Source of the DNA: Candidatus Bathyarchaeia archaeon
GTDB taxonomy: Archaea > Thermoproteota > Bathyarchaeia > Bathyarchaeales > DTEX01
Assembly (NCBI GenBank): GCA_038820405.1
Contig: JAWAXL010000001.1
Coordinates: forward strand, 1,208-65,207
Length of the DNA stretch: 64,000 bases
Direction: 5' to 3'
In this document: piece by piece, positions 5,737 through 23,936 of the stretch
Position numbering within the stretch: position 1 is the stretch's first letter
How the letters are laid out: each line of letters starts with the position of its first letter
Position numbers and translations under genes: made by a program
The notes under the pieces: model-generated
Seen by the model: the letters and a program-made list of their open reading frames with translations, nothing else
Told to the model about the DNA's origin: nothing
Database searches by the model: none

Positions 5737-7239
5737 GTGGTGGATATGATAGAAAAGACAGCCCTTATAACCATCTATAGTATTGTGATATTTGCAGCAA
5801 TATGCATTGGGTATGGTATTTATTTAGCGCGTAGACTGCGAGGTTCTTCTGACTTTCTGGCGGCGTCAAAGGCCTTACCGTGGTATGCTGTTGCTATGGG
5901 TGTTGCGCTCTCCCCTCTGGGCTCTGGGCATACTATAGGCATGTGGGAGACGGGTTATCTGGCAGGTTTAATGGCCGTTTGGTTCTCAATATGTTTTGGC
6001 GCCCTCTTTATGCCCTGGTGTTTCTATGGTTTAGGTTCTTGGATACGTAGGACGGGTGCCATCTCGATTCCAGAAACATTTCATTTGTTTTATGGACCGC
6101 TAGGACGTAAGCTGAGCATCTTACCAAACTGGGGATTCTCATTCTGCATAGCGGGTATTGAAATACTATGCATATCCTACGCTATATATGGGATAACAGG
6201 GCTACCACTAATTCCATGGTGCATTGTCATCTCCACCATACTCTCAATAATTTATGTCGAGTTCGCTGGACTCCGCCAATTAGGCTACTTAAACGTAATC
6301 TTCGCACTAATCATGTACATAGGAGCGTACCTAGGTCTTGCATGGCTAGGTGCATACGCGCTGCCATCCCAGCTAGGTATAACATGGGAGGGCATAACCC
6401 AAAGACTCACAGAAATGGGGCAAGCATTTAAACTAAACATGTTTGCCTCACCAGAAATCATATCGACAATAGCTATACCGATGGTGATATTTGCCCTATT
6501 TGGCTGTGGAAGTGTGCAAATGCCAATGCAAGCTGCCTTTGGTGCAAAGGATATAAAAGAAGTTAGAAAAGCATTACCCTCAGCGGCATTCGTAAACTCT
6601 CTCTCAACAATTCCCTGGGCGGCTATAGGGCTTATAACTGTTGTAACTGCGTTTGCAGCAGCTGGCCCCTCAATAGGACCTATCAACCTTATGGTAACCT
6701 TACTACCTGCGGAAATAGTTGCTGCGTTGCTAATATCCCTATTGGTCGCTAATATCTCCACATCGGCAGGACACATTCTAGCAACAACTATTGTTAGCAC
6801 TAACGATATCTATAAAGGATTCATTAATCCAAATGCGGATGAAAAGACGCAGCTAAGACTTTCTAGAATTCTAGTGATCATTTATAGTATTATCGGGGGC
6901 CTCATAGCCTACATGTTAGCGGCCGCCCAAGCCCTAATTATACCAAACTTGATGTGGACCTCTGCTCTGGCACTACCAGGATTCTTCCTAGCGCTTTATG
7001 GCTTTTGGTGGAAGAGGAGCAAAAAAGCTTTCACGCTTTCGTGGCTTATTATATGGATTGTTGTAACCGTATGGACCTTTATACCACGTAGCATACTCCT
7101 CCAATACGTGCCAGCATGGTTGGCGGAGCCACTTAACTTCTCAGCCATATTATCGTTCATAGTAGTCACCGCATTGACTGCAGCACTGCCCGGTGAGAAA
7201 GGATACTTCAAGAGTCAGGGGGTAGTAAAGAATGCTTGA
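5737..7239 (+). CDS. sodium:solute symporter (SSF) family transporter, paralog 1
   Basis: 500 aa and polytopic. After TM1 comes the SSF-typical basic loop RRLRGSSDFLAASKALPW. It is a paralog of 19021..20547 and 22243..23730. Confidence 0.7.
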   Translation: MVDMIEKTALITIYSIVIFAAICIGYGIYLARRLRGSSDFLAASKALPWYAVAMGVALSPLGSGHTIGMWETGYLAGLMAVWFSICFGALFMPWCFYGLGSWIRRTGAISIPETFHLFYGPLGRKLSILPNWGFSFCIAGIEILCISYAIYGITGLPLIPWCIVISTILSIIYVEFAGLRQLGYLNVIFALIMYIGAYLGLAWLGAYALPSQLGITWEGITQRLTEMGQAFKLNMFASPEIISTIAIPMVIFALFGCGSVQMPMQAAFGAKDIKEVRKALPSAAFVNSLSTIPWAAIGLITVVTAFAAAGPSIGPINLMVTLLPAEIVAALLISLLVANISTSAGHILATTIVSTNDIYKGFINPNADEKTQLRLSRILVIIYSIIGGLIAYMLAAAQALIIPNLMWTSALALPGFFLALYGFWWKRSKKAFTLSWLIIWIVVTVWTFIPRSILLQYVPAWLAEPLNFSAILSFIVVTALTAALPGEKGYFKSQGVVKNA

Positions 7240-7366
7240 TGCAATCTTATTCACGGCCGGATTCACCGCACTTATAACGCTGGTCGCAATCCTGATCACT
7301 GTTGGGCTTCATAGAGCATTAAGCAGGGAGAAGAGGGAGGGAGCGTCATGTCTCAAGAGTTCATAG
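7232..7366 (+). CDS. 44-aa single-TM micro-protein overlapping the symporter stop
   Basis: The ATG overlaps the SSF stop codon (AATGCTTGA). Product is MLDAILFTAGFTALITLVAILITVGLHRALSREKREG.., one TM plus a basic tail. It is the positional analog of 20554..20676 and 22120..22242. Not in the ORF track. Confidence 0.4.
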   Translation: MLDAILFTAGFTALITLVAILITVGLHRALSREKREGASCLKSS

Positions 7367-7458
7367 TGTATTGGGGTTATGCCCTAATTCTTGTGATAGG
7401 CTTCATCGCAGTCTATATTATCCTTACCATCTCCGAGAGACGGAAAAAGCGAAGTTGA
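7348..7458 (+). CDS. 36-aa single-TM micro-protein (E-[FW]..W family)
   Basis: MSQEFIVYWGYALILVIGFIAVYIILTISERRKKRS. It overlaps the preceding micro-ORF. It shares the N-terminal E-F/W-x3-W, TM and basic-tail layout with 20673..20795 and 23820..23936. Confidence 0.45.
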   Translation: MSQEFIVYWGYALILVIGFIAVYIILTISERRKKRS

Positions 7459-7682
7459 AAGTTTCCCGGAATAGACTTTGACTCAGCAACACCTGTTAAT
7501 ACTCACAGACATCTTTTTTTATCATATATATCAATTAGTTATCCATTTTTATATCCCGGTTCTTGGAGAAGTGTCAATTAGACAAGCAGTAAGTGTTCAA
7601 TATAGCGTGAAGTGTGTTAGACTACGCAAAAATTAAATAATTTTGCTGACAGTAAAGTTTGCAAAGCTTGAGTTTTAACTTT

Positions 7683-9608
7683 TTAAAGTATTTCTAGTGC
7701 GAGGTTAAAGGCTTCATGTATTGCATCCAAGGACTTTCTAGGCTTTACGCAATCTCCAACCATATAAACTTTTTCCCCAAACTCTTCTTTGAGTTTCTCA
7801 GCTAGAGTTTTGTTTGGTTTTGATCCTACGGCAAGAACTATACTATCAGCCTTAATGAACTCCTCTTTACCATCCCTTTCAACATACAATCCACCCTCCA
7901 CAATTCTCGTGACCTTTGCTTTCGTTAAAACCTTGACGTTATTCCTTCTAAGAAACATTATGTCGATCCATCTCGTTGTGATACCAACATCTTGAGCTAT
8001 TTTTTCAAGCATTTCAATGAGGGTTACCTTCTTCCCCCTCTCAACTAGGAATTCTGAGACCCAAACGCCAACGCCCCCACCACCAACAACAGCCACCTCA
8101 TCGCCCTTAACATTAATCTTTTCATCTAAAACATCCCAAGAAATAAGAACGTTCTCTCTATCTACTCCCTCTATGTTTGGAACAATTGGTTCTGCTCCTG
8201 TTGCAACGATGATTATATCAGGGTTATATTCCCTAGCGATGTCTACATCGGCTTCAGTATTAAGTCTAATGTCGACGCCAAGTTTTCTGAGCTGAGACTC
8301 GAAATAGTCAATTAATAGTTTAAATTCCTCATGTCCCGGAGGTTTAAGGGCAAGGTTTATTTGTCCTCCAAGCCTCCCGGTTTTCTCCAACAAAGTGACT
8401 TTATGACCTTTAACTCTAGCCATTAAAGCCGCTTCCATTCCAGCTGGCCCACCACCAATAACTAGAACATTTTTAGGTTTACTTGTCGGAGTGAACTTAA
8501 CTTCGCCCTCCCTGCCAACCGTGGGATTCACTAAACATGTAACATCTTTATCCATAAATATCCTGTCAAGGCAACCTTGATTGCATGCTATACACGGCCT
8601 GATATCCTCAATTCTACCTTCATATGCTTTTTTAGGAAATTCAGGGTCGGCTATTAGTGGTCTACATATGCGGATAAAATCAGCCTTTCCCTCTCGAAGA
8701 ATCTCTTCTGCAATTTCAGGCGTATTTACTCTTGTGCCAGCGATAACTGGTATACTTAAAATTTTCTTAATCTCATGTGATAAATATATGAACCCTGCCC
8801 GAGGAACATGGTAAGTTATTAAGGGTCTCGGAGATTCGTGCCAGCCCTCAAGTGTATCTATAGCATCCACGCCAGCCCTCTCCAAACATTTAGCAATAAC
8901 CTTTGTTTCTTCGACGGTGTTTCCACCTGGAATAAATTCATCAAGGGTGATCCTGCAAATTACTGGAAAATCCTTTCCAATCTCCTCTTTTATGAGCTCA
9001 ATAATTTCAAGCAGAAACCGCGTCCTATTCTCTATACTCCCACCATAATTATCCGTTCTCTTGTTTGTTAAAGGAGATAGAAATTCACTTATAAGATAGC
9101 CCCCAGCAGCCGAAATTTCTATCAGATCGAACCCGGCGTCCACTGCCCTTCTCGCGGCTTTAGCAAAATCAGCTTCCAGTATCTTAATTTCGTCGACACT
9201 TAATTCCCTTGGAGTCTCGCCTGTTAAACGCGAGGCTATTGGCGATGGAGCAACTGGTTGATCACCTATAATTGATGAGAGAGCATATCTACCAGCATGG
9301 AAAAGTTGTGCACCAACTTTTATGTCACCATAATTTTTGATGCTTCTCACCAATCTCCTCAAACCATCAATATATTTGTCATCATAAATTGCAATCATAC
9401 TATGTGAGATTATCCCAAGAGGGTGGACAGTGCATCCCCCTACAATTATTAGCCCTACCCCACCTTTGGCCCGTTCAACGTAAAAATTTATGAGTCTATC
9501 TGTCACAAAACCATTCTCCGCATAGCCAAGGTGTACTGCTGGCATAACAATTCTATTTCTAAGTTCAAGTTTTCCAATCTTACCTGGCTTAAAGAGGTTA
9601 TAAAACAA
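7683..9608 (-). CDS. enoate reductase / 2,4-dienoyl-CoA reductase family flavoenzyme (OYE TIM barrel + [4Fe-4S] + FAD/NAD(P) domain)
   Basis: 641 aa. OYE-like N-terminus (RIVMPAVHLGY, LFHAGR), Cys cluster CIACNQGCLD..C, and C-terminal GGGPAGMEAA and VVGGGGVG dinucleotide folds. TTG start follows GAGGGAAAGTGA. Confidence 0.85.
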   Translation of the reverse strand: MFYNLFKPGKIGKLELRNRIVMPAVHLGYAENGFVTDRLINFYVERAKGGVGLIIVGGCTVHPLGIISHSMIAIYDDKYIDGLRRLVRSIKNYGDIKVGAQLFHAGRYALSSIIGDQPVAPSPIASRLTGETPRELSVDEIKILEADFAKAARRAVDAGFDLIEISAAGGYLISEFLSPLTNKRTDNYGGSIENRTRFLLEIIELIKEEIGKDFPVICRITLDEFIPGGNTVEETKVIAKCLERAGVDAIDTLEGWHESPRPLITYHVPRAGFIYLSHEIKKILSIPVIAGTRVNTPEIAEEILREGKADFIRICRPLIADPEFPKKAYEGRIEDIRPCIACNQGCLDRIFMDKDVTCLVNPTVGREGEVKFTPTSKPKNVLVIGGGPAGMEAALMARVKGHKVTLLEKTGRLGGQINLALKPPGHEEFKLLIDYFESQLRKLGVDIRLNTEADVDIAREYNPDIIIVATGAEPIVPNIEGVDRENVLISWDVLDEKINVKGDEVAVVGGGGVGVWVSEFLVERGKKVTLIEMLEKIAQDVGITTRWIDIMFLRRNNVKVLTKAKVTRIVEGGLYVERDGKEEFIKADSIVLAVGSKPNKTLAEKLKEEFGEKVYMVGDCVKPRKSLDAIHEAFNLALEIL

Positions 9609-9791
9609 TCACTTTCCCTCGCAATCTAGTTAATTAGTAAAAAAAATCATCTTTAGCAAATTTAAAGTTTATCATCAGAAAATGATGGCAAATTTTATCA
9701 ATATATTTATTGAGTAAGATAGCGATAAAAGAATAGTTTTAGTGAAAATTATAAATAAATCTCTCTACAGTAGATTTTTTGGTGAAATGAA

Positions 9792-10961
9792 ATGAGTGTT
9801 GATGAATTAACTGAAGAACAAAAGTTAATTGTTCAATCCGCCAGGGAAATTATAAAAAAGTTTAATCCAGAGTACTGGAGAGAGAAAGATAGAAAGAAGG
9901 AGTGGCCGCGCGAATTTCATGAAGCTCTTACTGAGGCGGGGTTTTTCGGAATATTAATTCCTGAGAAATACGGAGGAAGCGGTTTTGGCCTTAAAGAATT
10001 AATTCTTGCCGTTGAAGAACTTACAAAAGGTGGAGCTGGTGCAGGAGCCTATGCGCAGCTTCTCTTGCCTGAAGTATTTGGTGGGGTAACTCTTGTTAAA
10101 CATGGTACCGAAGAGCAGAAGGAGAAATATTTGCCAAGGATCGTTAAAGGAGAAGTTGCCTGCTTAGCATTAACCGAGCCCGAGGCAGGGGTCAACACAT
10201 TTAAAATTAATACTATGGCTGTAAGGGATGGCAACGAATATGTGATAAACGGTAGAAAAATATGGATTTCAGGTGTCGACAAATCTAAACTAATGGTGCT
10301 CGTGGCAAGAACCTCTCCTTACGATCCGTCTAAAAAGACTCATGGATTAAGTATTTTTCTTGTAGATTTGCCAAATGATTCCATTGAGATAACCCCGATT
10401 GAAAAGCACGGATGGAACTGGGAAGAAGCATTTAATGTCTATATTAATGATCTTCGCGTTCCCAAAGAAAATTTACTTGGAGGAAAAGAGGGACAGGGTT
10501 GGTGGCAGATAGTAGATACGCTTAACCCTGAAAGAATTATGGTAGCTATTGCAGCATATGGCATAGGTGACCTGGCAATCCGCAAAGCCGTTGAATATGC
10601 AAACCGAAGGGTTGTCTTCGAAGCTCCCATTGGATCATATCAAGGTATTCAATTCCCCTTAGCCAAGGCAAAAGCTAACTTAGAAGCTTCTAAGTTACTT
10701 GTGTATAAGGCGGCAGATCTTTTTGATAAAGGTAAACCATGCTTCACTGAAGCATGTATGGCTGCTCTTACCGCTATTGAAGCTGGTATCGAGGCGGTTT
10801 TCTATTCTATGCAAGCTTTTGGAAGCTATAGCTATGCCCTCGAGTATGATGTTGAGAGGTGGTGGAGAGAGGTACTTCTATTCAGACTTGCGCCAATACC
10901 ATACAATATGCTACTAAATGAGATAGCTAGGTTCATTTTAGGAATGCCAAAGTCTTACTAG
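9792..10961 (+). CDS. acyl-CoA dehydrogenase
   Basis: 389 aa with GFFGILIPEKYGGSG and LTEPEAGVN motifs and the full ACAD three-domain length. The usual YEGT catalytic-Glu site reads APIP. Helix G reads NPER, suggesting an IVD/LCAD-like base position (inference). Confidence 0.88.
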   Translation: MSVDELTEEQKLIVQSAREIIKKFNPEYWREKDRKKEWPREFHEALTEAGFFGILIPEKYGGSGFGLKELILAVEELTKGGAGAGAYAQLLLPEVFGGVTLVKHGTEEQKEKYLPRIVKGEVACLALTEPEAGVNTFKINTMAVRDGNEYVINGRKIWISGVDKSKLMVLVARTSPYDPSKKTHGLSIFLVDLPNDSIEITPIEKHGWNWEEAFNVYINDLRVPKENLLGGKEGQGWWQIVDTLNPERIMVAIAAYGIGDLAIRKAVEYANRRVVFEAPIGSYQGIQFPLAKAKANLEASKLLVYKAADLFDKGKPCFTEACMAALTAIEAGIEAVFYSMQAFGSYSYALEYDVERWWREVLLFRLAPIPYNMLLNEIARFILGMPKSY

Positions 10962-11022
10962 ACTCTTTACTCCCTTATCCTCTCAAATTTTAAATTTAGT
11001 CTTACCTTTTTTAATCCATGGG

Positions 11023-13158
11023 GTGAAAATTATATTGAGCAAAAAGTATGGAGAAAGGGTGAAAGTATATAAAAGTACTTGTCGCATGTGTCACGGAGGA
11101 TGTGGAGTACTCGTTCACGTAAAAGATGGAAAGATTATAAAGATTGAGGGTGATCCAGAGTCTCCACTGAGCAGAGGCACGATGTGTGTTAAATGTCTAG
11201 CCTCCTTAGAGCATGTGTATAACCCGTATCGCATCAAGTACCCAATGAAGAGGATAGGGGAGAGAGGTGAAGGAAAGTGGCAGCGCATCTCATGGGACGA
11301 AGCCCTCAATAGCATAGCAAGCAAGCTTAAGGAAATTAGAGAAAAGTATGGACCTGAATCCATCGCTATTGGTCAAGGTACCGGTAGACACCATTACTTC
11401 TTTGTAGTTAGGTTCGCTAATGCGCTTGGAACCCCAAATTGGTGCGAACCAGGTTTAGCTCAATGCTTCCTGCCTAGAGTTACAGTGAGTTTAATCACCT
11501 ACGGAGACTTCTTTGTTTGTGACTATTATGGAGATATTTCTCCTAAATGCTTGTTAGTATGGGGTCATAACCCATTGGTAACGGGGCCTGATGGAGAGAT
11601 CGCTGTTTTAGTGCGTAGATGTCTTGGTAAGAATCCCAAGTTAATTGTTGTGGATCCTAGACGCACCGAGATGGCTGAAAAGGCAGATCTATGGTTACAG
11701 ATTAGACCAGGTACTGATTGTGCTTTAGCTTTGAGTATGCTGAACGTCATTATCAATGAGAATATTTATGATAAAGAATTCGTTGAGAAATGGACGGTTG
11801 GATTTGATAGATTATGTGAGCATGTTAAACAGTATACTCCTGAATGGGCAGAGAAAGTTACATGGATCCCTGCGGAAAAAATTAGGGAGGCGGCTAGAAT
11901 GTATGCTTTAACGAAGCCTGCATGCATTGAGTGGGGTGTTGCTCTCGAACATACGCCAAACTGCATTCAAACCCTTAGAGCCATCGCACTCCTACCAGCA
12001 GTAACTGGCAATATTGATATTCCCGGCGGGAATATTTTTGGGATGCATATTGTACGGCCTTTCCCTTTCCTTTATGATAAATTGCCAGCCGAAATGTGGG
12101 AAAAAAGATTAGGATCTGATAAATTTAAGCTTCTTTGCGGCCGGGAGGCAGTTCTCCCCTCGGCTCATGCCTCTACACTATTTAAGGCAATGCGTACAGG
12201 CAACCCCTATCCCATTAAAGCTTTTCTTGTTTTTGGTAATAATGCACTTGTAACATACGCCAATTCTAAAGAGGTGTATGAAGCATTAATGAACTTAGAG
12301 CTTTTAGTGGTTACGGACATCTATATGACACCGACAGCTGAAATTGCTGATTTTGTACTTCCCGCAGCCACGTGGCTTGAGGTTGACGAGATAGTGGCAT
12401 TTCCATACCTTGCAGAGAACGTCGTTCTCGTACAACAGAAAATAGTGGGAGTGGAAGAAGCCAAGCCAGATGAGTGGATACTAATTGAGCTGGCTAGAAG
12501 GTTAAATTTGCCACATGGCACTGAATCACTAGAGGAAGTTCTTAATTATCAATTAGAGCCTTTAGGCATTACTTTCGAGGAGCTTAAGAAGAGAGGTTAT
12601 GTGTCAGTCCCCATAAAATACAGGAAATATGAGGAGAAAGGATTTAACACCCCATCTGGTAAAGTTGAACTTTATTCAAGCATTCTAGAAAAGCTAGGGT
12701 ATGACCCCCTACCACATTACAAGGAGCCCCCAGAAAGTCCGGTTAGTACGCCAGAGCTTGCGAGAGAATACCCATTAATATTAATAACAGGAGGGAGGAC
12801 GCCATGCTTCTTCCACTCAGAGGGTCGTCAGATTCCGTCATTACGCAAACTTCATCCGGACCCCATTGTAGAGATTCACCCAGAAACGGCTAAAGAATTA
12901 GGTATTAAAGATGATGATTGGGTACTCATAGAGACACCAAGGGGAAGAATTAAACAGCGGGCTAAGCTCACAGACGGGATTCACCCAAAGGTGGTGCATG
13001 TTGAACATGGATGGTGGTTTCCGGAAAAACCAGCCCCAGACCATGGAGTTTGGGAGTCAAACGCAAATTTGCTAACAAATAATGGTCCACCCTACGATCC
13101 AGCTATGGGAACATATCAGCTGAGGGCATTATTATGCAGAATATCTAAACTTGGTTAA
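11023..13158 (+). CDS. molybdopterin (bis-MGD) oxidoreductase, DMSO-reductase superfamily, cytoplasmic
   Basis: 711 aa. N-terminal [4Fe-4S] motif CRMCHGGCG..x27..C, no twin-arginine signal, and a C-terminal molydopterin-dinucleotide-binding beta-barrel region (IHPETAKELGIKDDDWVLIETPRG). Confidence 0.85.
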   Translation: MKIILSKKYGERVKVYKSTCRMCHGGCGVLVHVKDGKIIKIEGDPESPLSRGTMCVKCLASLEHVYNPYRIKYPMKRIGERGEGKWQRISWDEALNSIASKLKEIREKYGPESIAIGQGTGRHHYFFVVRFANALGTPNWCEPGLAQCFLPRVTVSLITYGDFFVCDYYGDISPKCLLVWGHNPLVTGPDGEIAVLVRRCLGKNPKLIVVDPRRTEMAEKADLWLQIRPGTDCALALSMLNVIINENIYDKEFVEKWTVGFDRLCEHVKQYTPEWAEKVTWIPAEKIREAARMYALTKPACIEWGVALEHTPNCIQTLRAIALLPAVTGNIDIPGGNIFGMHIVRPFPFLYDKLPAEMWEKRLGSDKFKLLCGREAVLPSAHASTLFKAMRTGNPYPIKAFLVFGNNALVTYANSKEVYEALMNLELLVVTDIYMTPTAEIADFVLPAATWLEVDEIVAFPYLAENVVLVQQKIVGVEEAKPDEWILIELARRLNLPHGTESLEEVLNYQLEPLGITFEELKKRGYVSVPIKYRKYEEKGFNTPSGKVELYSSILEKLGYDPLPHYKEPPESPVSTPELAREYPLILITGGRTPCFFHSEGRQIPSLRKLHPDPIVEIHPETAKELGIKDDDWVLIETPRGRIKQRAKLTDGIHPKVVHVEHGWWFPEKPAPDHGVWESNANLLTNNGPPYDPAMGTYQLRALLCRISKLG

Positions 13159-13191
13159 AAACCGTAAAGGAGAAAGATCTCTGGCCCCTAA

Positions 13192-13210
13192 TTTTTTATT
13201 TTTTCATTTT
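13192..13210 (+). terminator. oligo-T terminator after molybdoenzyme gene
   Basis: TTTTTTATTTTTTCATTTT begins about 35 nt after the stop codon. Confidence 0.45.
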
Positions 13211-13469
13211 TAAAGCCAAGAATTTGCCAGTCTTACCTTATTAATCTTGGCAGCCCCCTAATTTAACTCTTAGAAAGTTTCATTCTCCAAAATTTATAGG
13301 AGATGCTCTTTTTCCTGGCTTATTTTCTTGGCTTAAAATGCCATTAGTGAGCAATAGAATTAATCATTTAAAGAGAATTGAAAGCCAAAAAAGACGAAAA
13401 ATGTTAATAACGACTTTGCGAAAGTCATATATACGGTAAAGTCTTCTACTAGATTTTTGGTGAAAGAAA

Positions 13470-14885: not shown

Positions 14886-14890
14886 TAAGA

Positions 14891-15079: not shown

Positions 15080-15112
15080 AAACCATTTTCTCCTTTTTTA
15101 TTCTTTTTCTTT

Positions 15113-16342
15113 TTAATTATTTTCCTTTTGATATTTTCGTGTTGGTAAAAGTAGAAGTACTGACAGAAATGATGCTATCAGCGCAGTTAAAAACGATAAT
15201 TTAAATGTCTTGGTTATATCAGCCATCCACCCAGCTAATGGAGGCGAGATCATGCATCCTATGCCAAAGAAAACTATTAGTAAGCCTTGTACCGCTCCAA
15301 TATATTCTTCAGAGAAAATATCAGAGGCATATGCAGCATAAAGCGTTCCCAGGGCACCAAAACCTATCCCATAAATAATTGCTGATAAGGATACTGTAAT
15401 AAAGGCCAAGTTTAGGAAGTTGCTGGCCAAAATTATTCCAAGTAAGCCTAATATAGGAAATGACCCATCAATAATCATTGCTTTTATTCTTCCAATGATT
15501 TCAGAGAAGAATGACAAAATGATTACGCCGGGTACTGCTCCGATAGTGATCATGCTTACGACGGCGGCAGCATTTTCATAGGGTAGTAGGAGTTCCAGAA
15601 AACAATATGTGCTGAGAAAAGCAAGTAAAATTGCTACATAAAAACCGACAAACATGTATGATAAACCTAACATCCATAGTTTTATATCCTTAGCCATATT
15701 TAAGAGTGAAAATTTGTATTGGTTCCATCCTCTTACTATCTTTTTCTGCTCGTAACCCTCAGGATAGCTTTTCAATAGAAACCAGGTTAGGGGGACAAGT
15801 ATTAGACTGGCAAGGCCAAGAGTCTGCCATCCAAGCCTCCAGCTTCCAATTCTAACTAGCAGTGGCATAATGATGCCACTTAGGGCAAAGGTAGAGTGTG
15901 CCCCGGCAGCGGTTACTGCTACTGAAAATGCTCGCTTTTTACTAAACCATCTCTGAATCACTACGACTATGGGAACCCAAGCTGCCGCACAACCAATGCC
16001 AGTCAACATATATGATATTGTTGCTTCAAGTAATGTATTTGATAGGCTTAGGAGGAGGATACCGATGCCCGCTATCAATAAAAAGATGGAGATTATTTTT
16101 CTAGCATTATATCTATCTATGAGTACACCAAGTATCAGCGAGAAGATTGTATAGCCAAGGAAGTGGGATGTATATATTATGCCAGCCTCAAGCTTCGAAA
16201 TATTAAGTGAGAGTAGCATCTCAGGGAGCAAAATGCCATAACTATATCTAATTGCAAAGCTTACAAGAACAATAAAGAACCCTAAGACAAGAATGATTAT
16301 GCTCCTTTCAATTCGAGGAAAATTCATGAAGGGTCCCTCCAT
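15113..16342 (-). CDS. MFS transporter
   Basis: 409 aa with about 12 hydrophobic segments. MFS motif-A-like GVLIDRYNARKI lies between TM2 and TM3. Confidence 0.8.
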   Translation of the reverse strand: MEGPFMNFPRIERSIIILVLGFFIVLVSFAIRYSYGILLPEMLLSLNISKLEAGIIYTSHFLGYTIFSLILGVLIDRYNARKIISIFLLIAGIGILLLSLSNTLLEATISYMLTGIGCAAAWVPIVVVIQRWFSKKRAFSVAVTAAGAHSTFALSGIIMPLLVRIGSWRLGWQTLGLASLILVPLTWFLLKSYPEGYEQKKIVRGWNQYKFSLLNMAKDIKLWMLGLSYMFVGFYVAILLAFLSTYCFLELLLPYENAAAVVSMITIGAVPGVIILSFFSEIIGRIKAMIIDGSFPILGLLGIILASNFLNLAFITVSLSAIIYGIGFGALGTLYAAYASDIFSEEYIGAVQGLLIVFFGIGCMISPPLAGWMADITKTFKLSFLTALIASFLSVLLLLPTRKYQKENN

Positions 16343-16545
16343 TTATATAGATTTAATTAACAATTTAATTTCAGTTATATATGTTCATATCTGCAATAGG
16401 TGTATGCTCTGATTCTTTTAGTATTCTTAGTAAAAATACTTATAAATTTAAAGGTTGCAGGGACTTTTATTTACCAAATTTCTAAAAAGAAAAAGATATA
16501 AAATATCTGAACGGATCTACATTTTAATGTTGCTCAGATTATCTT

Positions 16546-17445
16546 ATGAGGGAGCTATCTATGATAATTGACTCTTGGGTATTAGGTTGCTGGACACCTG
16601 AGCTACGAAAAGCATATCTAGAGCACCCCCTAACGCGAAGGTTTATGAAGGTTTTTAGGCTAGAGGGAGAGGATCGAGTGCCATCTAAAACAGTTGAGCA
16701 AATGGTAGAGGAAATGGAGAACACTGGCATTGATAAAGCCGTATTAGTTGGGGACTCGCCATTTAAACCCGCAGTAAGCTATGGTCCATCGATTCCGCCT
16801 TCATTTGGAACCTATGAACAATGGAGTAAATTTGCAGATAAGTATCCGGATAAATTTGTTGTATGTGCTACACCCTCTAGACCTGGATACTGGGATGTTA
16901 GACAAACTGTGAGGGAGGTTGAGAGAGCAGTAAAAGATTTTCACGCTCAGGCAATAAATATTCCGTCTCCTGCTTGGAATTTACCATTTAATTCAAAATT
17001 ACTCTATCCTGTTTATTCTAAGTGTGTTGAACTAGGCATCTCGATATGGATTTGGGTAGGCATCCCTGGACCCTACTATCCAGTAAAAGTGGCACAAGTT
17101 ATTTTCTTGGATGAGATCGCGTTGGCCTTTCCAGAGTTGAAGATAGTTGCGCACCACATAGGAGACCCTTGGATCCAAATGGTAACCCATCTAGCAGGAA
17201 AATATGAGAACCTGTATATATGTACATGTGCCTGGTCACCTAGATGGTATCCAAGTGAACTAGTTAACTTTATGAAAACATCATGGTTTGGCACTAGGGG
17301 GAGTGAAAAAGTTCTTTTTGGAACGGCTTATCCGGTTTTACCATGGAAAAGAGCTGTTGAGGAAGCCTTAGCTTTACCTTTGGAGGACGAGGATAAAAGA
17401 AAGTTTTTGGGGGAAAATGCTTTAAAGTTATTTCATTGGGGATAA
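16546..17445 (+). CDS. amidohydrolase_2 (TIM-barrel metal-dependent hydrolase/decarboxylase) family, active-site motifs degenerate
   Basis: Family-like layout, but the expected HxH reads IIDSWVL, the mid-barrel His reads IWIWVG, and the final GxDxP reads FGTAYP. The likely start is ATG 16561, after GAGGGAG. Confidence 0.6.
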   Translation: MRELSMIIDSWVLGCWTPELRKAYLEHPLTRRFMKVFRLEGEDRVPSKTVEQMVEEMENTGIDKAVLVGDSPFKPAVSYGPSIPPSFGTYEQWSKFADKYPDKFVVCATPSRPGYWDVRQTVREVERAVKDFHAQAINIPSPAWNLPFNSKLLYPVYSKCVELGISIWIWVGIPGPYYPVKVAQVIFLDEIALAFPELKIVAHHIGDPWIQMVTHLAGKYENLYICTCAWSPRWYPSELVNFMKTSWFGTRGSEKVLFGTAYPVLPWKRAVEEALALPLEDEDKRKFLGENALKLFHWG

Positions 17446-18029
17446 TAAAACTCTTACAATTTTTTATCCACCCTTATCCTTAAATTTTATAAAATGAACT
17501 CGACTTACTCATTAAGTTCCTCATATAACTGAGAAATATTCAGTTACGTGAAGTGATTTAAGTGTCACATGTATTGCAGGGAAAATTTAAAGGTCTAGTA
17601 AATTTTGTTTGGAGAGGAGATTTTATTGTTAGTTAGGTTTTGGACAAAAATCTGAGATAGATAAAAAGTATTGATGCAAAGGCGGTCTTTAACGATGTGA
17701 CAGATAAATTACAAAGAAAGGAAAGAATATAGGCATTTAAACCATATTGTTTTTATAAATTATCAATTTAAACTGAACTTCTAGAAGAATACGAGCGCAC
17801 CTCGGCCCCTTAATATATAAGTCATCTTTTTAGCAAACACTAGAATATCGAATTTAATTCGTTTCAATTTGATGGAATTGCCAGCGAGCTTCTCTATTTT
17901 ATCCTTTTTTGAATCTAAATGAAAATTTAACTCAAATATCGTTGAAAATCAACTGGATCTCAATAAAGTGTCGCAAGTTTTATATAGGGATAAAAATAAA
18001 AGAAAAATGAATTGGGGTGAAATTGAAGG

Positions 18030-19013
18030 ATGGCAAAAGATGAGTTCTTTAAGATAGACGTGGAGGCTCACTTAGTAGGCGATATGGAGCCAATCTCATA
18101 CTTTCCAGGAGTTCAAATGTGGTGGCGCGCTGTTCACGGCATTACGCGGCCACTCTTCTTCCCATTAGAAACACCTTCTGAACTACTGAAAGTGAAACAT
18201 AAGCCTGAGGAGTTAATTGAAATCATGGACAAATATGAGGTTGATATGGCTTTTGTGCTTCCCGAGTCAATGATGGATACGACGGGCTACGCTACGCGCT
18301 GGGTAACAAATGGTTATGTAGCTGCTGCCTGCGCAAAATATCCAGAAAGATTCATTTTCTGCCCAAACGTAGGGCCAATTAAAAAGAGAGGAGTGAAGAA
18401 CGCTGTCTGGGAACTTGAATATTTAGTGAAAGAGAGGAATGCGAAGGTAGTCAAGCTTTATTCGCCAGAGGACATCTATCTGAACGACCCTGAAATTTAT
18501 CCATTCTATGAAAAATGTGTTGAACTAAAGATTCCAGTCTGCATTCATACAGGATTTTGCTGGGTCCCTCCAGGCAGAGCTAAATATTGCCATCCAGAAC
18601 AACTAGACGATGTGGCAACCGACTTTCCCGACCTAATAATAATTGCTTATCATGCAGGGTGGCCTTATCCAGATGTCTTAAATATGGTTGCGGCGACTCA
18701 CCCAAACGTATATATAGGGTTAAACTTAATAGTGCCTTGGGCTTTGGCTACACCCAGACGCTTTGCAATGATATTGGGTGAGGCTCTCCGCTGGGTTGGG
18801 CCTGACAGAATTGTGTGGGGGACTGACTTTGCTGGGTTGGAAGCGCAAGTCCTATATGCTGTTGAGGGACTTAAAAAATTCCAGATACCGAAGGATATGC
18901 AGGAAGAGTATGGTTACCCAGCTTTGACGGACGAGGATAAAAAGAAGATTTTCGGATTAAATCTGGCGAAAATACTCGGTATAAAGCCAGAGAGGAAGAT
19001 GGGAAAGAGGTGA
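18030..19013 (+). CDS. amidohydrolase_2 family metal-dependent hydrolase/decarboxylase
   Basis: 327 aa. Candidate ligand motifs are intact: KIDVEAHLV, VCIHTGF, AYHAGWP, WGTDFAG. A 7-nt gap separates it from the downstream symporter. Confidence 0.7.
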   Translation: MAKDEFFKIDVEAHLVGDMEPISYFPGVQMWWRAVHGITRPLFFPLETPSELLKVKHKPEELIEIMDKYEVDMAFVLPESMMDTTGYATRWVTNGYVAAACAKYPERFIFCPNVGPIKKRGVKNAVWELEYLVKERNAKVVKLYSPEDIYLNDPEIYPFYEKCVELKIPVCIHTGFCWVPPGRAKYCHPEQLDDVATDFPDLIIIAYHAGWPYPDVLNMVAATHPNVYIGLNLIVPWALATPRRFAMILGEALRWVGPDRIVWGTDFAGLEAQVLYAVEGLKKFQIPKDMQEEYGYPALTDEDKKKIFGLNLAKILGIKPERKMGKR

Positions 19014-19020: not shown

Positions 19021-20547
19021 ATGATAATATGGGAGACCCTCATAGTTTTTCTAATATACTTTATTGTTAGCATGGTGGCTGTGGGGATATATACTCAGAG
19101 AAAATTCATTAAAAAGGGAATCGACTTTACAATAGCCAGCCGCACGTTGCCATGGTGGTTGATCGCCTCAGGCATCCTGCTAATACCATTCGGCATAGGC
19201 AACTCACTCTTAATAGCTGAGTCTTCATGGATATATGGTTCTTCCATACTTTGGTGGATGGTTGTGGGTTCAGCATTAACATGTGTAGTAGCTCTTATAG
19301 GTCCTGGAAGATGGTTCAGGCGAGTAGAAGCTGAAAGTTACCCGGATGCTCTTGCAAAGATATTTAAAGATGAACGCATGCGTATCATCGGAATTATGAC
19401 GAGCTACATGTGGGTTTTCGGCATCGCAACCTTAGAACTATTTGGATGCGCTGCCGCACTCTATGGACTTACTGGGCTCGATCTAACCTACTGTGTTCTC
19501 ATAGGCTTCCTCCTCTACTTCTTATACATCATATTTGGCGGAATGTTCCAGTATACTTATCTAAATATCTTGAACGTGATAGTCATCTATATTTGCATCG
19601 GCCTAACCTTCTTCGGCTTAAGTATGTGGATAGCGCCTATAGGCGGATGGGAGGGTGCGACCACACTCATCGCTGAGAAGATGGGTACATGGGCAACTAC
19701 CATGCTTCCACTTGAGAGACTAGGCGAAATGTTCTTAGCACTTTGGATCCCAATATTAGTCGCACATACAGCAGCAGTAGCATTTACAGGTCCTGTACCA
19801 CTAGTGACTCATGGAATGAAAAGTGAAAGGGAAGCTATTAAAGGATGGCCTATGGCGTTGCTTCTTAACGGGTATTGGGGCTGGCTATGGGTAATGCTTG
19901 GAATGCTAGCATTAGTTGTTCCTGCATCACTCTATGGGCCAATGGCTCCTGCCATTGAGGCGCTCAGGGCAGCTCCAGGAGTAACTGGAGCGGTGCCAGC
20001 TGCAATTATAACGGCGATTAGTACTGGAACAATTTCCTCTACAGCTGTCCTTATAGCGTTGATGGCGGCAACAATATCCACTGGCTCCGCCTGTGCCTTA
20101 TATATAGCCTCAAGCACCACAACTGACATTGTTAAGAGATATCTTAATCCAAATATTAGTGAGAGAAAGTTCATATGGCTCGTAAGGATTGTTGCTATAG
20201 GCATAATGGCCGCTGCCATTTGGGGAGCTCTGTTGCGTGGGTACCTACTTGGAGGATTCCTATGGATCTTCAGTTCAGCGATGCCAGTACTTATATATGT
20301 GCCATTAGCCTTCTTCTGGAGAAGAAACACTAATGCGGCTATAGCAACAACAATCATTAACTTCATTATTCTGTACATTTGGTTGATATTCTACCCAGCG
20401 TTGAGTCCTATGATGCCTTCTTGGATGCAGGCGCTTGGTTTCACCTATCCATCATTCATAGTCTCACTTATACTATACCCTGTACTAGCCTTGGCTCTCC
20501 CAGGAGGCAAGCCCGGATATCTAAAGGAGGAGAAACAGGAGGTGTAA
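19021..20547 (+). CDS. sodium:solute symporter (SSF) family transporter, paralog 2
   Basis: 508 aa and polytopic. About half its residues are identical by eye to 22243..23730 (for example ASRTLPWWL vs ASRTMPWWL, GNSLLIAESSWIYGS vs GNSLALSESSWIWGS). Confidence 0.75.
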   Translation: MIIWETLIVFLIYFIVSMVAVGIYTQRKFIKKGIDFTIASRTLPWWLIASGILLIPFGIGNSLLIAESSWIYGSSILWWMVVGSALTCVVALIGPGRWFRRVEAESYPDALAKIFKDERMRIIGIMTSYMWVFGIATLELFGCAAALYGLTGLDLTYCVLIGFLLYFLYIIFGGMFQYTYLNILNVIVIYICIGLTFFGLSMWIAPIGGWEGATTLIAEKMGTWATTMLPLERLGEMFLALWIPILVAHTAAVAFTGPVPLVTHGMKSEREAIKGWPMALLLNGYWGWLWVMLGMLALVVPASLYGPMAPAIEALRAAPGVTGAVPAAIITAISTGTISSTAVLIALMAATISTGSACALYIASSTTTDIVKRYLNPNISERKFIWLVRIVAIGIMAAAIWGALLRGYLLGGFLWIFSSAMPVLIYVPLAFFWRRNTNAAIATTIINFIILYIWLIFYPALSPMMPSWMQALGFTYPSFIVSLILYPVLALALPGGKPGYLKEEKQEV

Positions 20548-20553
20548 AATGAA

Positions 20554-20676
20554 ATGCCTGAGCTAATACTTCCATTACAACTATTCATTGAGCTAATGAT
20601 CCTTCTATGGGCAGTGAACATATGGTTTTATGTTGGATACAAGGTATGGAACAGATGGAGGGGAAAGAAGAAATGA
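20554..20676 (+). CDS. 40-aa single-TM micro-protein (VN[IM]WFY[IV]GY family)
   Basis: MPELILPLQLFIELMILLWAVNIWFYVGYKVWNRWRGKKK, starting 7 nt after the SSF stop. It is a clear homolog of 22120..22242. Not in the ORF track. Confidence 0.55.
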   Translation: MPELILPLQLFIELMILLWAVNIWFYVGYKVWNRWRGKKK

Positions 20677-20795
20677 TAGCGTGGGAATGGCTAATTGGAT
20701 GGGAAGGCTACCTGACATACGTATTCATAATCTCAACGATAATAGCCATCATAGCATATAAAAAGGGAAAAACTAGGCAATCTGGCGAGAAATAG
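20673..20795 (+). CDS. 40-aa single-TM micro-protein (MIAxEWLxxWEG family)
   Basis: MIAWEWLIGWEGYLTYVFIISTIIAIIAYKKGKTRQSGEK. ATGA overlap with the preceding micro-ORF. It is a homolog of 23820..23936. The track lists a longer 20607 start in the same frame. Confidence 0.55.
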   Translation: MIAWEWLIGWEGYLTYVFIISTIIAIIAYKKGKTRQSGEK

Positions 20796-21172
20796 GCCAT
20801 TAGTGAAATTCCAATTCACATATATCACATAAAAACCTCTTAAATTACCTCTCTTTTTTTAAAAATAAAAGAGTCAATTCTACTAATTTTGTTGATGGAT
20901 TTTTTAGGTCTCCATCCATTCATTTTATATCTACTTGACTTTTAGGGAAAGGTGCTGCGGGAGAAAGTGTACCTAACCTAATGGAGCCATGCAGACAAAT
21001 TAAACTACCTTTAAAGTGGAACTAATCTCATTTTAGCCCTTAAGAGGGTGCTGGGCGCCGTTCATCCGCATTTAGGCAAATTTGGCAAACCCCTATTTAA
21101 GATTTTACAGTAAATACTTAAAGCGGATTGTATTAAAATTACTTTTAACTAACTTCGCCAAAGGAAACTGTA

Positions 21173-22042
21173 ATGATTGGTGTAATCTTAGCTCTGATTA
21201 CAGCGTTCATCTATGGCTTATCTGTTGTTCTTATTCGAGAAAGAATTAGTGAATCAAATTATTTATCGGTTGCAGTAGTTCTCTCATTAATTGGCAACAT
21301 TATTCTTTGGCCCCTCACACTAACACTCATAAATCTAAGAAACGTTAATATTCAAAGCATTCCATTCTTCATCATAGCAGGGATATTTTCCCCTGGGATC
21401 GGTAGAATATTCTATTATAAAGGCATGGAAAAACTCGGTGTCTCTATAAATGCATCCATTTATGCGACTTACCCGCTGTTTAGTTCAATATTAGCAACAC
21501 TGTTGCTTGGAGAAATTGTAACGCCGAATGTCTGGCTTGGAATAATAGCAATAATGCTTGGGGTTATATTCATTGAGAGAAGCATCGCTAGACCCCCCAA
21601 TATTAAGACTAAACCTATTTCTAGGAAAGGCTTAATCTTCCCATTTCTTGCATCTATAATAATGGCTCTATCTTATCTCTCCAGAAAATATGGATTAAAT
21701 ATTTGTAGTGAACCCCTATTAGGTGTTACAATAGGGTATTCTTCAGCCCTACTTTCACAACTTCTAGTCTCAAGATTGCTTAGAATGCCGTTACTTCCAT
21801 CCTTTAAAGATATACACCTATTCTGGAGACCTGGCGTTCTCCTAATCTTAGGATGGACATCAGCTACCTATGCGTTAAATTATGAGAAAGTTTCTGTTAT
21901 AACTACCATTATACAAGTAGAGCCATTGTTCATCCTCTTTCTAACTTTTTTGAAGCTTAGAGAATTGGAGAGAATATCAACAAAGGTTGTCATAGGTACA
22001 ATTTTAATAGTTATAGGAGTCTCACTTGTCACGCTGAAATAA
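21173..22042 (+). CDS. EamA/DMT family permease
   Basis: 289 aa with 10 hydrophobic segments in two repeated halves, typical of drug/metabolite transporters. Confidence 0.8.
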   Translation: MIGVILALITAFIYGLSVVLIRERISESNYLSVAVVLSLIGNIILWPLTLTLINLRNVNIQSIPFFIIAGIFSPGIGRIFYYKGMEKLGVSINASIYATYPLFSSILATLLLGEIVTPNVWLGIIAIMLGVIFIERSIARPPNIKTKPISRKGLIFPFLASIIMALSYLSRKYGLNICSEPLLGVTIGYSSALLSQLLVSRLLRMPLLPSFKDIHLFWRPGVLLILGWTSATYALNYEKVSVITTIIQVEPLFILFLTFLKLRELERISTKVVIGTILIVIGVSLVTLK

Positions 22043-22119
22043 TCTTCTTTAAAGAAGAGACTTAAATTTCTGCACGCATAAAAAGGTTAAGGTGATATGG
22101 AAAAGTTAAGAGAATTGCT

Positions 22120-22242
22120 TTATTCGCTTTCCTTTTTAGGAGACTTCTTCCTTCTCTTATTTATTAAGTATCCAATGTAGAACCACATGTTTACTATTAT
22201 GAGTAGAGCAAGGAGTTCGAGTCCTATCCAGAGATGCCACAT
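22120..22242 (-). CDS. 40-aa single-TM micro-protein (VN[IM]WFY[IV]GY family)
   Basis: MWHLWIGLELLALLIIVNMWFYIGYLINKRRKKSPKKESE. Its ATG directly abuts the TAA stop of the symporter 22243..23730. Not in the ORF track. Confidence 0.55.
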   Translation of the reverse strand: MWHLWIGLELLALLIIVNMWFYIGYLINKRRKKSPKKESE

Positions 22243-23730
22243 TTACCTACCCCTCCTAGATATGAGGGTTAGTATTGGATATAGTATAACAGAAACTATG
22301 GATTGAGGATAGACGATTCCAAGCGGTGGGTGGAGCCAAACGGGCAGGGTAGCCATTATGGCTGGACCGAATAGCACCCACAATATAGATACAATCCATG
22401 CGATTATCACTGTGGTCGCCGCTGCCGTAGAGTTTCTCCTCCACCCGAGACCATACAGGGTTACGAGAAACACTGGTATCGAGAAGCTAAATATGTATAT
22501 GAAGCCCCCCATTAGAAATGGACGAATAACCGCTCCCAGCATACTAATTGCTAGTATGCAAAGTGTCAGTGCTCTTAATAGTCTTAGGAGTCCTTTATCA
22601 CTAATATTTGGTTTGATGAAGGGTTTAACTATGTCAACCGAGATCCATGTTGATCCAGTAATAGCGAGTATGCCGCCAGTGGATATTGTTGCCGCCATCA
22701 GCGCAATGAAAAATCCGGTGACAGCAGGAACGCCTGCAGAGACAAGACTAAACAGTGTGGCAGGTACAGCCCCTGCCGTACCTGCAGCTCTTAGCATAGA
22801 AATAAGTCCAGATAGTGGACCATAAAGGAAAAGAGGTACGCTGATGGCAATTAAACCGACCACGGTCCAACTATACCCCCAAAATCCGTTGAGAAGCAAT
22901 GCGGGCAACCAACCTTTCACAACTTCTTTTTCACTTCTAGCTCCTAGAACAGGCTGAGTACAAATAGGGACGACTGCACATGTATGCGCAAGTAATATAG
23001 GAATTACCAGACAAGCGAATAAGGGCGCAAGCATTTCAGGTGGGGCAATATGCAGACTCCAGGGCCCCATTGTTTCTTCAATATAACTAGAGACTCCCGC
23101 AATTCCACCCACCGGCCCAAGCCAAGAGTTAATTTGCCACATCCCTACGGCTAATCCAGCATATACAACAAATATGTTTATGAAATTCAGTATTGAATAT
23201 TGTAACATGCCACCAAGTATCACGTAAAGTGCGTACAAGCAAAATGCAATTATGACACAATATTCGATTGGAAGACCTAGTAGAGCGTAGAAAATACTGC
23301 TACAGGCGAACATTTCTAGGCTTGCTATAGCTATGGTAGTTACTGTGACCGCGGCTGATGAAAGAATCCTAAATCTGTCATCAAAAACCTTGCCTGCTGC
23401 TTCATGAGGTGTTTCAGCACCTAATCTTCTAGCCCATCTTCCATACCCAACGAATGCGGCTACTAATGTTAAGCCTGAACCTACTATCATCCACCATAAT
23501 ACGCCAGATCCCCATATCCATGATGACTCGGAGAGAGCTAGTGAGTTACCTACACCGAAAGGCAGGAGTATAGCTCCGAACATCACAAGCCACCACGGCA
23601 TTGTGCGCGATGCTACGGTGTAATCGATGCTTTTCCTAATATACTTCCTATTAACATAGATGCCTATTGCGGTCAATGAAATGAAGAAGTAAAGTAGTGT
23701 TGCTATCAGTGGAATAATAATTTCTTGCAT
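22243..23730 (-). CDS. sodium:solute symporter (SSF) family transporter, paralog 3
   Basis: 495 aa, a close paralog of 19021..20547 in inverted orientation. Confidence 0.75.
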   Translation of the reverse strand: MQEIIIPLIATLLYFFISLTAIGIYVNRKYIRKSIDYTVASRTMPWWLVMFGAILLPFGVGNSLALSESSWIWGSGVLWWMIVGSGLTLVAAFVGYGRWARRLGAETPHEAAGKVFDDRFRILSSAAVTVTTIAIASLEMFACSSIFYALLGLPIEYCVIIAFCLYALYVILGGMLQYSILNFINIFVVYAGLAVGMWQINSWLGPVGGIAGVSSYIEETMGPWSLHIAPPEMLAPLFACLVIPILLAHTCAVVPICTQPVLGARSEKEVVKGWLPALLLNGFWGYSWTVVGLIAISVPLFLYGPLSGLISMLRAAGTAGAVPATLFSLVSAGVPAVTGFFIALMAATISTGGILAITGSTWISVDIVKPFIKPNISDKGLLRLLRALTLCILAISMLGAVIRPFLMGGFIYIFSFSIPVFLVTLYGLGWRRNSTAAATTVIIAWIVSILWVLFGPAIMATLPVWLHPPLGIVYPQSIVSVILYPILTLISRRGR

Positions 23731-23819
23731 GTTGTGTATGTTTACTTGAAGATATATTTAACTTTTACGCTATAGTTAAAGCAAATTTTAAATATTGATA
23801 AGAAAAATATTTATTATTC

Positions 23820-23936
23820 ATGATAGCAACAGAATGGCTACTTGCTTGGGAAGGCATGTACACTTACATACTAATAATCATTGTGGCGGTAGGTCTTCTT
23901 TTTCTTAGAAAAAGAAAGCAACAAAAGCAGTTATAG
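23820..23936 (+). CDS. 38-aa single-TM micro-protein (MIAxEWLxxWEG family)
   Basis: MIATEWLLAWEGMYTYILIIIVAVGLLFLRKRKQQKQL. It is divergent from symporter paralog 3 and a homolog of 20673..20795. Not in the ORF track. Confidence 0.5.
   Translation: MIATEWLLAWEGMYTYILIIIVAVGLLFLRKRKQQKQL

Follow-up and report, generated by a model that had tools for sequence, protein, structure and literature searches.

Paired single-helix micro-proteins encoded beside a rare archaeal clade of SSF symporters are candidate accessory subunits

A stretch of 64,000 nucleotides (nt) from the metagenome-assembled genome (MAG) of a Candidatus Bathyarchaeia archaeon (contig JAWAXL010000001.1, positions 1,208 to 65,207; the whole stretch is referred to here as the window) contains exactly three SSF symporter genes by Pfam scan, designated T1, T2 and T3. 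Each of these genes is accompanied by two real, strongly conserved genes for single-helix membrane micro-proteins, which range from 32 to 45 amino acids (aa) across the loci that we compared. We propose that these peptides are co-expressed, transporter-dedicated accessory micro-subunits of the SSF symporter, presumably in physical association with it, and assign this interpretation a probability of roughly 0.62. The proposal draws its support from comparative genomics: the small genes stay linked to the SSF gene through four gene orders, no other neighbour of theirs is constant, and there are precedents in DUF485, DUF4212 and MAP17.

The original prediction for this DNA placed six small open reading frames (ORFs) beside the three SSF genes, and all six are present at exactly the coordinates and on the strands that it gave (Table 1). 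We refer to two of the families as type 1 and type 2, and to the pair that follows T1 as locus 1a and locus 1b. The predicted junctions were borne out, with ATGA at 20673-20676, TAAATG at 22245-22240, and immediate placement of type 1 after the transporter. The type-2 gene of locus 3 was also correctly described as lying on the opposite strand and upstream of the transporter, 89 bp from T3. The description of the six ORFs as unannotated needs correction for four of them, which NCBI lists as hypothetical proteins (accessions in Table 1), and holds for the ORFs at 7348-7458 and 23820-23936, neither of which was found in a collection of 15 billion proteins.

Table 1. Symporter genes, small ORFs and associated elements in the window, and related loci with their gene arrangement
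Feature	Position	Strand	Description
SSF symporter T1 (QXH24_00040)	5737-7239	+	500 aa; Pfam SSF E=7e-16
Locus-1a micro-protein (QXH24_00045)	7232-7366	+	44 aa; single hydrophobic helix, basic C-tail; kept after transporter in L086-L088
Locus-1b micro-protein	7348-7458	+	36 aa; motif E-[EF]-[LI]-[LI]-VYWGYAL; kept in L086-L088
Oligo-T run (T7)	7514-7520	+	56 nt past locus-1b stop
SSF symporter T2 (QXH24_00090)	19021-20547	+	508 aa; Pfam SSF
Locus-2 type-1 micro-protein (QXH24_00095)	20554-20676	+	40 aa; LFIE-x8-NIWFYVGY; 6 nt past T2 stop
Locus-2 type-2 micro-protein (QXH24_00100)	20673-20795	+	40 aa; MIAWEWLIGWEGY...; start overlaps type-1 stop (ATGA)
Oligo-T run (T7)	20854-20860	+	59 nt past type-2 stop
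Oligo-T run (T5)	22080-22084	-	36 nt past locus-3 type-1 stop
Locus-3 type-1 micro-protein (QXH24_00110)	22120-22242	-	40 aa; ATG directly after T3 stop (TAAATG)
SSF symporter T3 (QXH24_00115 in NCBI record)	22243-23730	-	495 aa; Pfam SSF
Divergent intergenic region	23731-23819	.	89 bp; common to T3 and locus-3 type 2; A/T-rich TATA-like boxes facing both ways
Locus-3 type-2 micro-protein	23820-23936	+	38 aa; divergent from T3; without Shine-Dalgarno-like motif
Locus L081 (same locus in L082-84, L089)			Transporter 46% identical to T2; type 1 MELLLPLRLFIELLVLSWVVNVWWWVAAK... then type 2 MMISWEWLLSWEGYMFY..., both after transporter
Locus L085			Transporter 39% identical to T2; type 2 immediately upstream of transporter; type 1 downstream, opposite strand
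Loci L086, L087, L088			Transporters ~65% identical to T1; both locus-1 ORFs directly past transporter: MIDYVLIVIGQNLAITL...RLWARRRK, MPEELLVYWGYALLVL...RRRKER
Loci L094-L097 (type-1 protein P0078)			Order type 1 > type 2 (MEINWVWLTRWEGFYLY...) > SSF
Locus L098 (type-1 protein P0079)			Type 1 convergent with SSF gene; type-2 ORF (MEVVRFDWLLGWEGLALY...) precedes SSF gene
Locus L099 (type-1 protein P0077)			776-kb contig, Candidatus Nezhaarchaeales MAG; arrangement as in L085

The sequence surrounding the ORFs is consistent with the translational coupling that had been proposed, or with co-transcription. Starts and stops overlap or are separated by gaps of 3-6 nt; the ATG of locus 1a (7232) overlaps the end of T1 by 8 nt, and loci 1a and 1b overlap each other by 19 nt. 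Shine-Dalgarno (SD)-like motifs (GGAGG/GGGTGA) are found 5-10 nt upstream of nearly all small-ORF starts, including GGGAGGGAG 5 nt upstream of the locus-1b ATG, GGAGGTG 8 nt upstream of the type-1 start at 20554, GGAGGGG upstream of the type-2 start at 20673, and AGGAGGGG upstream of the locus-3 type-1 start. Locus-3 type 2 has none. Here TTTAAATA is positioned at 23786-23793, approximately 27-34 nt upstream of the ATG at 23820, and this box together with the absent SD-like motif fits a leaderless or short-leader archaeal transcript, the box being a putative promoter element. For locus-2 type 2, alignment of the family places the start at 20673 and not at the upstream ATGs, and the SD-like motif agrees. 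In a Logan assembly the same peptide (region 20607-20795, protein P0074) is called from an ATG further upstream and so gains nine N-terminal residues (MEQMEGKEE...). Oligo-T runs are located 36-59 nt past the last small ORF of the window operons and are absent between the transporter stops and the small ORFs; the unit of T1 with loci 1a and 1b (5737-7458) contains no internal run of five or more T's. The T7 runs are likely archaeal terminators, that at 7514-7520 for the T1-1a-1b operon and that at 20854-20860 for the T2-type 1-type 2 operon.

Each family has a recognizable sequence and architecture. Type-1 peptides (37-45 aa) contain LF[IV]E-x8-N[IVM]W[FW][YW][IV][GA] followed by a basic tail, and are encoded beside an SSF gene of the clade described below. 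Seven distinct sequences, both window copies among them, fit this description, and the Glu-x8-Asn, which sits inside the helix, is invariant in all seven. Type-2 peptides (35-45 aa) carry an N-terminal [WF]x WL xx WEG and continue into a transmembrane (TM) helix and a basic tail, again beside an SSF gene of the clade. Six aligned sequences and the L099 copy belong here, both window copies included, and the invariant W-L-x2-W-E-G lies at the N-terminal interface (family motif WEWLxxWEG). All 21 peptides examined have one 19-residue hydrophobic stretch with a mean Kyte-Doolittle value of 1.7-2.6 (2.5 for locus 1a), a net charge of 0 to -2 in the N-flank (-1 for locus 1a), and a net charge of +2 to +6 in the C-flank (+3 for locus 1a). 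Because of the basic C-tail, the positive-inside rule predicts a single-pass topology with the N-terminus outside and the C-terminus inside.

Similarity among the peptides was assessed by phmmer, using single-sequence queries against approximately 22,000 six-frame stop-to-stop segments drawn from the window and 85 loci, of which 80 were distant SSF loci and the others related ones. No peptide query retrieved anything outside its own family. The two type-1 peptides of the window matched at E=1e-4 and the two type-2 peptides at E=1e-6, with cross-genome pairs of the order of E=1e-9 to 1e-11 and down to E=4e-11; locus-3 type 1 matched other members of its family at E=1e-4 to 1e-5, and locus-3 type 2 matched its family at E=1e-6 to 7e-9. 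Locus 1b retrieved its copies from L086-L088 at E=3e-7 to 1e-6. Of the four peptide families locus 1a is the weakest, with E=1e-3 to 0.06 in the same comparison. The assignment of 7348-7458 to type 2 was not established: locus 1b, with its VYWGYAL, resembles type 2, and hhalign gave a probability of 44% for the two families, to be read beside the 33% obtained for type 1 against type 2, which serves as a control only if those families are unrelated. Similarly, 7232-7366 occupies the position expected of a type-1 analog, as had been suggested, but its homology to type 1 is unproven (hhalign 8.5%). The locus-1 ORFs are thus best described, on present alignments, as positional analogues of types 1 and 2 that form conserved families of their own.

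Both small ORFs were kept beside every related transporter found. A pair of type 1 and type 2 is present at seven distinct loci (window loci 2 and 3, L081, L085, L094, L098 and L099), and the locus-1 pair is present at four (window locus 1, L086, L087 and L088). When a type-1 profile built from the two window peptides was searched against 1.84 billion representative proteins, six proteins were recovered at E<=1e-3, all of them 37-45 aa long. These were the two window peptides, that of L081, and three new proteins (P0077, P0078 and P0079), and all three of the new matches adjoin an SSF gene accompanied by a type-2 ORF. Four gene orders were observed: SSF > type 1 > type 2; a divergent upstream type 2, then SSF > type 1; type 2 > SSF with type 1 convergent on the opposite strand; and type 1 > type 2 > SSF. 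Linkage to the SSF gene has therefore been kept while gene order has not. The other neighbours vary by locus and include peptidase M24 or S15, amidohydrolases, AMP-ligases, molybdopterin oxidoreductase and an ABC transporter. By NCBI taxonomy the trio is present in at least two archaeal phyla, Ca. Bathyarchaeota and Ca. Nezhaarchaeota.

The transporters concerned form a rare and isolated SSF clade, known from approximately nine distinct loci. Word-indexed searches of 5.8 billion proteins turned up no more than a handful of relatives, and scores within the clade were at least 735 bits, compared to 139 bits for the next protein; these searches overlooked known paralogs, so the clade appears rare but its size is an estimate only. 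The type-1 and type-2 genes are linked exclusively to this clade. A scan of genome contigs by transporter alignment yielded only relatives of approximately 21-26% identity (with short partial matches to 46%), mostly from Bacillota, and no ORFs resembling type 1 or type 2; likewise, no segment resembling either peptide was present at the 80 distant SSF loci, and the outgroup SSFs P0009 and P0010 had no comparable small TM ORFs. An alignment scan with type 2 gave nothing in viral contigs, and in metagenome contigs gave only one more copy of the L081 locus. Two of the distant archaeal SSF loci, L058 (2495-2770; Calditenuaceae MAG) and L069 (2586-2873; uncultured archaeon), have adjacent ORFs of 91-95 aa with two TM helices, and these are genuine DUF4212 small subunits (E=9e-12 and 6e-14). 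This positive control indicates that the approach detects known partner families where they are present.

Selection was analyzed in the L085 and L099 orthologs, the one pair with unsaturated divergence, from the rates of nonsynonymous (dN) and synonymous (dS) substitution. The transporter had a dN of 0.020 and a dS of 0.66 (dN/dS 0.03), with 162 synonymous and 19 non-synonymous codon changes and 27, 5 and 159 differences at codon positions 1, 2 and 3, respectively. For type 1 the values were dN 0.031, dS 0.57 and dN/dS 0.05, with 9 synonymous and 3 non-synonymous changes (2, 1 and 11 by position), and for type 2 they were dN 0.024, dS 0.91 and dN/dS 0.03, with 11 and 2 changes (4, 1 and 10 by position). 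The excess of synonymous changes was significant for both peptides (binomial p=4e-4 for type 1 and 1e-5 for type 2). On either side of type 1, the intergenic DNA of this ortholog pair was only 52-55% identical and contained indels. Purifying selection on both peptides is thus as strong as on the transporter. Across paralogs dS is mostly saturated, and the differences still follow the order position 2 < position 1 < position 3. For the locus-1 pair the sole distant comparison is that of the window with L086-L088, in which locus 1b had totals of 48, 13 and 54 differences at the three positions; this comparison supports locus 1b well and locus 1a less strongly. Among L086-L088 themselves little can be said about selection because divergence is tiny, the transporter dN/dS is approximately 0.8, and the T1-type transporter of L087 (4001-5465) is frameshifted, being broken into three frames while both small ORFs remain intact. 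Such a pattern suggests decaying copies, or else errors in assembly or sequencing. The claim that the small ORFs are real genes is upheld by their conservation beside relatives and, for types 1 and 2, by strong purifying selection.

A model for the role of the peptides can be built from these observations. The transporter and its two peptides would be made together, either as a single, translationally coupled operon or from an intergenic region that they share in divergent or convergent arrangement. Inserted in the membrane in the predicted orientation, with the basic tail in the cytoplasm, the peptides may pack on the SSF protein as small accessory subunits, likely as a 1:1:1 heterotrimer, and they could be needed for assembly, stability or activity of the symporter. 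Candidate contact or functional residues are, in type 1, the intramembrane Glu-x8-Asn and an aromatic NIWF[YW][IV]GY belt at the inner interface and, in type 2, the Trp/Glu-rich WEWLxxWEG at the outer interface.

Several observations weigh against the accessory-subunit model. Peptide identities do not track transporter identities; in Mantel tests on six trios, which have low power, r was -0.23 (587 of 720 permutations as high) and 0.31 (76 of 720), neither value being significant or lending support to co-evolution. The clade is very rare, and the model may not extend beyond its roughly nine distinct loci. Locus 1a is weakly conserved, with a dN of 0.64 against its orthologs compared to 0.27 for its transporter, and in the closely related L086-L088 the substitutions in the transporter itself are spread evenly over codon positions. 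Finally, a structural subunit, a regulator and a biogenesis factor would all be compatible with gene linkage taken by itself. A bolder version of the model holds that the peptides are obligate active parts of a three-chain symporter, the type-1 Glu/Asn taking part in Na+/H+ coupling or gating and the type-2 Trp/Glu motif contributing to an extracellular vestibule. We consider this version improbable; if true, it would mean that in one archaeal SSF clade part of the transport mechanism has been handed over to 40-residue helices encoded by separate genes.

Other explanations for the small ORFs were weighed against the same evidence. The peptides might bind the transporter as conditional regulators in the manner of MgtS, MgtR, AcrZ and SgrT, acting by inhibition, by protection from proteolysis or by a change of specificity, which is a common role for small single-pass proteins (review PMC12648545). 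At window locus 3, L085, L098 and L099, one of the peptides is set apart by a promoter region of its own or by placement on the other strand, which would permit independent regulation. At most loci, however, the small genes overlap or abut the transporter gene with coupling signals, which suggests stoichiometric co-synthesis, and no locus has lost either peptide, selection on the two matching that on the transporter in strength. A regulatory role is in our estimation possible but rather unlikely. We also considered whether the ORFs could be transporter-unrelated hitch-hikers, such as type I toxin or holin-like peptides, remnants of sorting signals, or parts of some other complex encoded nearby. 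Models consisting of a TM helix and a basic tail (among them PGF-CTERM, PEP-CTERM, LPXTG and the TsaT toxin) gave weak matches, either sub-threshold or borderline. These matches span only the generic helix and basic tail; the PEP-CTERM match, for example, scored 16.7 bits against a cutoff of 16, covered profile positions 6-24, and lacked the PEP motif. A C-terminal sorting signal (PGF-CTERM, PEP-CTERM, LPXTG or Loki-CTERM) was ruled out on these grounds, the ORFs being 36-44 aa long with no preceding passenger domain. Moreover, no neighbour but the SSF gene recurs at all loci, all members that were recovered purely by sequence adjoin an SSF gene, and a dN/dS of 0.03-0.05 together with paired occurrence is unlike that expected of remnants, all of which makes hitch-hiking very improbable.

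A different origin would be that the small ORFs are detached terminal helices of an ancestral SSF protein with 14-15 TM helices, split off by stops or frameshifts, or in a variant of this idea still joined to it by read-through or frameshifting. Type 1 does follow the transporter stop immediately and in frame at window loci 2 and 3, and an SSF of approximately 500 aa is one C-terminal helix short of the SGLTs, its closest solved folds. This explanation is contradicted by the opposite-strand position of type 1 in L085, L098 and L099 and its upstream position in L094, by the start codon and SD-like motif that each ORF has for itself, by the lack of a fused form (no long protein among 1.84e9 has a type-1-like segment, nor do the 80 distant SSF loci contain a peptide-like one), and by an ill-fitting predicted topology, since the basic C-tail predicts N-out/C-in and a helix following a cytoplasmic C-terminus would need the reverse orientation. 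In addition, type 1 is out of frame in L081, as is locus 1a at window locus 1. We view a detached helix as highly improbable. The least probable explanation is that of chance ORFs, or of conserved non-coding DNA or RNA elements in the transporter flanks. The ORFs are short, and locus 1a is weakly conserved, with an overlapping alternative frame open in L086 and L087. Against this, most substitutions separating L085 from L099 fall at codon position 3, with a strong synonymous excess, protein-level similarity is significant while the flanking DNA has diverged, the ORFs are open at every locus, and Rfam has no matches in the symporter/small-ORF region. The codon statistics and the empty Rfam scan exclude this explanation for types 1 and 2, and the small ORFs of these types are real genes under strong purifying selection.

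All three large genes belong to the SSF family (PF00474/TIGR00813) by profile score, with PF00474 scores of 58.5, 33.4 and 37.4 bits against a gathering cutoff of 22.8, and the window transporters also gave weak matches to TIGR03648. T2 and T3 are 46% identical, and T1 and T2 are 28% identical. An AlphaFold2 model of T2 (pLDDT 87, pTM 0.86) has a typical SSF/LeuT fold. When the model was compared to solved structures by Foldseek, the best matches, at TM-scores of about 0.75, were hSGLT2-MAP17, hSGLT1-MAP17, NIS, vSGLT and SiaT; with CHT1, which also matched, the scores span 0.70-0.77. The C-termini of the transporters just before the small ORFs (e.g. 7195-7239 and 20500-20547) share a motif, ALPG-x-K-(P)-GY[LF]K, in T1, T2 and L086-88, and the remaining clade transporters have a looser C-terminal K-x0-2-PG-x0-2-[ILM]LK. 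This motif could be a conserved cytoplasmic tail, or could reflect overlap with the ribosome-binding region of the next gene.

The symporter genes lie in a catabolic gene island (4420-19013) encoding an M24 peptidase, an OYE/2,4-dienoyl-CoA-reductase-like flavoprotein, an acyl-CoA dehydrogenase, a molybdopterin oxidoreductase, a FAD_binding_2 protein, a small ferredoxin-like ORF (14882-15079), an MFS transporter and two Amidohydro_2 enzymes. At the related loci, AMP-ligases and peptidases of the M24 or S15 type recur. This context of peptidases, AMP-ligases and acyl-CoA dehydrogenases hints at an amino acid, a peptide or an organic acid as substrate. A transporter of the EamA/DMT family (21173-22042, + strand) lies between symporter loci 2 and 3, and an archaeal Pus10 pseudouridine synthase (24530-25888, + strand) follows locus 3. 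Between locus 3 and the Pus10 gene, Rfam identified a 93-nt tRNA (24326-24418, - strand; 58.7 bits), whereas ARAGORN found no tRNA in 24200-24500; this is probably an intron-containing archaeal tRNA that was overlooked by the bacterial-mode scan. A second tRNA is located at 32998-33072 (- strand).

The trio adds two or more undescribed micro-protein families, from the uncultured Ca. Bathyarchaeota and Ca. Nezhaarchaeota, to what is known of SSF transporters. Its format is unusual, with two separate one-helix peptides per transporter, selection of transporter strength, and invariant polar residues within the membrane. It also demonstrates how synteny combined with dN/dS can validate ORFs of 32-45 aa that annotation pipelines overlook or call only in part. 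For transporter biochemists it offers a compact three-gene unit for expression, purification and imaging, and heterologous expression of these symporters without the peptides may fail.

Small subunits of SSF transporters are already known or inferred, from bacterial genetics and gene context for DUF485, DUF4212, DUF997 and DUF3311, and from the human SGLT2-MAP17 complex. Mutant fitness data indicate that bacterial SSF transporters require DUF485 and DUF4212 as small components (bioRxiv 10.1101/072470); the mctC operon encodes a small membrane protein (PMC8892533), and DUF3311 is co-regulated with MctP (PMC9100948). The cited literature mentions no structure for the bacterial SSF small subunits. 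None of our peptides matched DUF4212, DUF485, DUF997, DUF3311 or any other Pfam or NCBIfam family above threshold. DUF4212/TIGR03647, which accompanies SSF transporters of the VC_2705 type (TIGR03648), resembles the present case in that a small hydrophobic protein is encoded beside the SSF gene. It differs in being a single protein of approximately 80-95 aa with two TM helices, in contrast to two separate one-helix peptides of 32-45 aa, and it gave no match at thresholds from E<=1 to E<=10 to the peptides, each with one hydrophobic segment, either alone or as concatenated pairs. YjcH/DUF485 (ActP and MctC type), YhdT/DUF997 (PanF) and DUF3311 (MctP) are likewise small membrane proteins of SSF operons that are co-regulated or co-fit there. 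These are single two-TM proteins, mostly bacterial, and no sequence relationship to the window peptides was found: the single-helix peptides had no Pfam or NCBIfam match to DUF485 or DUF997, and the lone DUF3311 match was sub-threshold (15.7 bits against a cutoff of 30, E=0.016), arising from the concatenated 1a and 1b of L086; it did not recur when the L086 peptide was scanned by itself, nor with the counterparts from the window, L087 and L088. The notion of the pair as one two-TM subunit cut in two found no support, as concatenated peptides searched against Pfam gave only irreproducible sub-threshold noise.

Single-helix partners of large membrane proteins provide a further parallel. KdpF, AcrZ, MgtS and CydX, at 29-49 aa, are single-pass peptides that stabilise or tune large membrane complexes and often share an operon with them (PMC12648545); they differ from the peptides described here in having other partner families, no homology and no conserved pair. 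MAP17 (PDZK1IP1) is eukaryotic, unrelated in sequence (no peptide matched MAP17-type families in Pfam), genomically unlinked and a single partner. The archaeal transporters, at approximately 500 aa, are shorter than the SGLTs and, judging from their length and the helices of the T2 model, probably have no equivalent of TM13, the helix of SGLT2 to which MAP17 binds in supporting stability and surface expression (PMC10803289). MAP17 with SGLT2 or SGLT1 is a possible analogue of the arrangement that we propose, in that a single TM helix binds the periphery of an SSF-fold transporter, and the SGLT-MAP17 complexes are the best structural matches to the T2 model.

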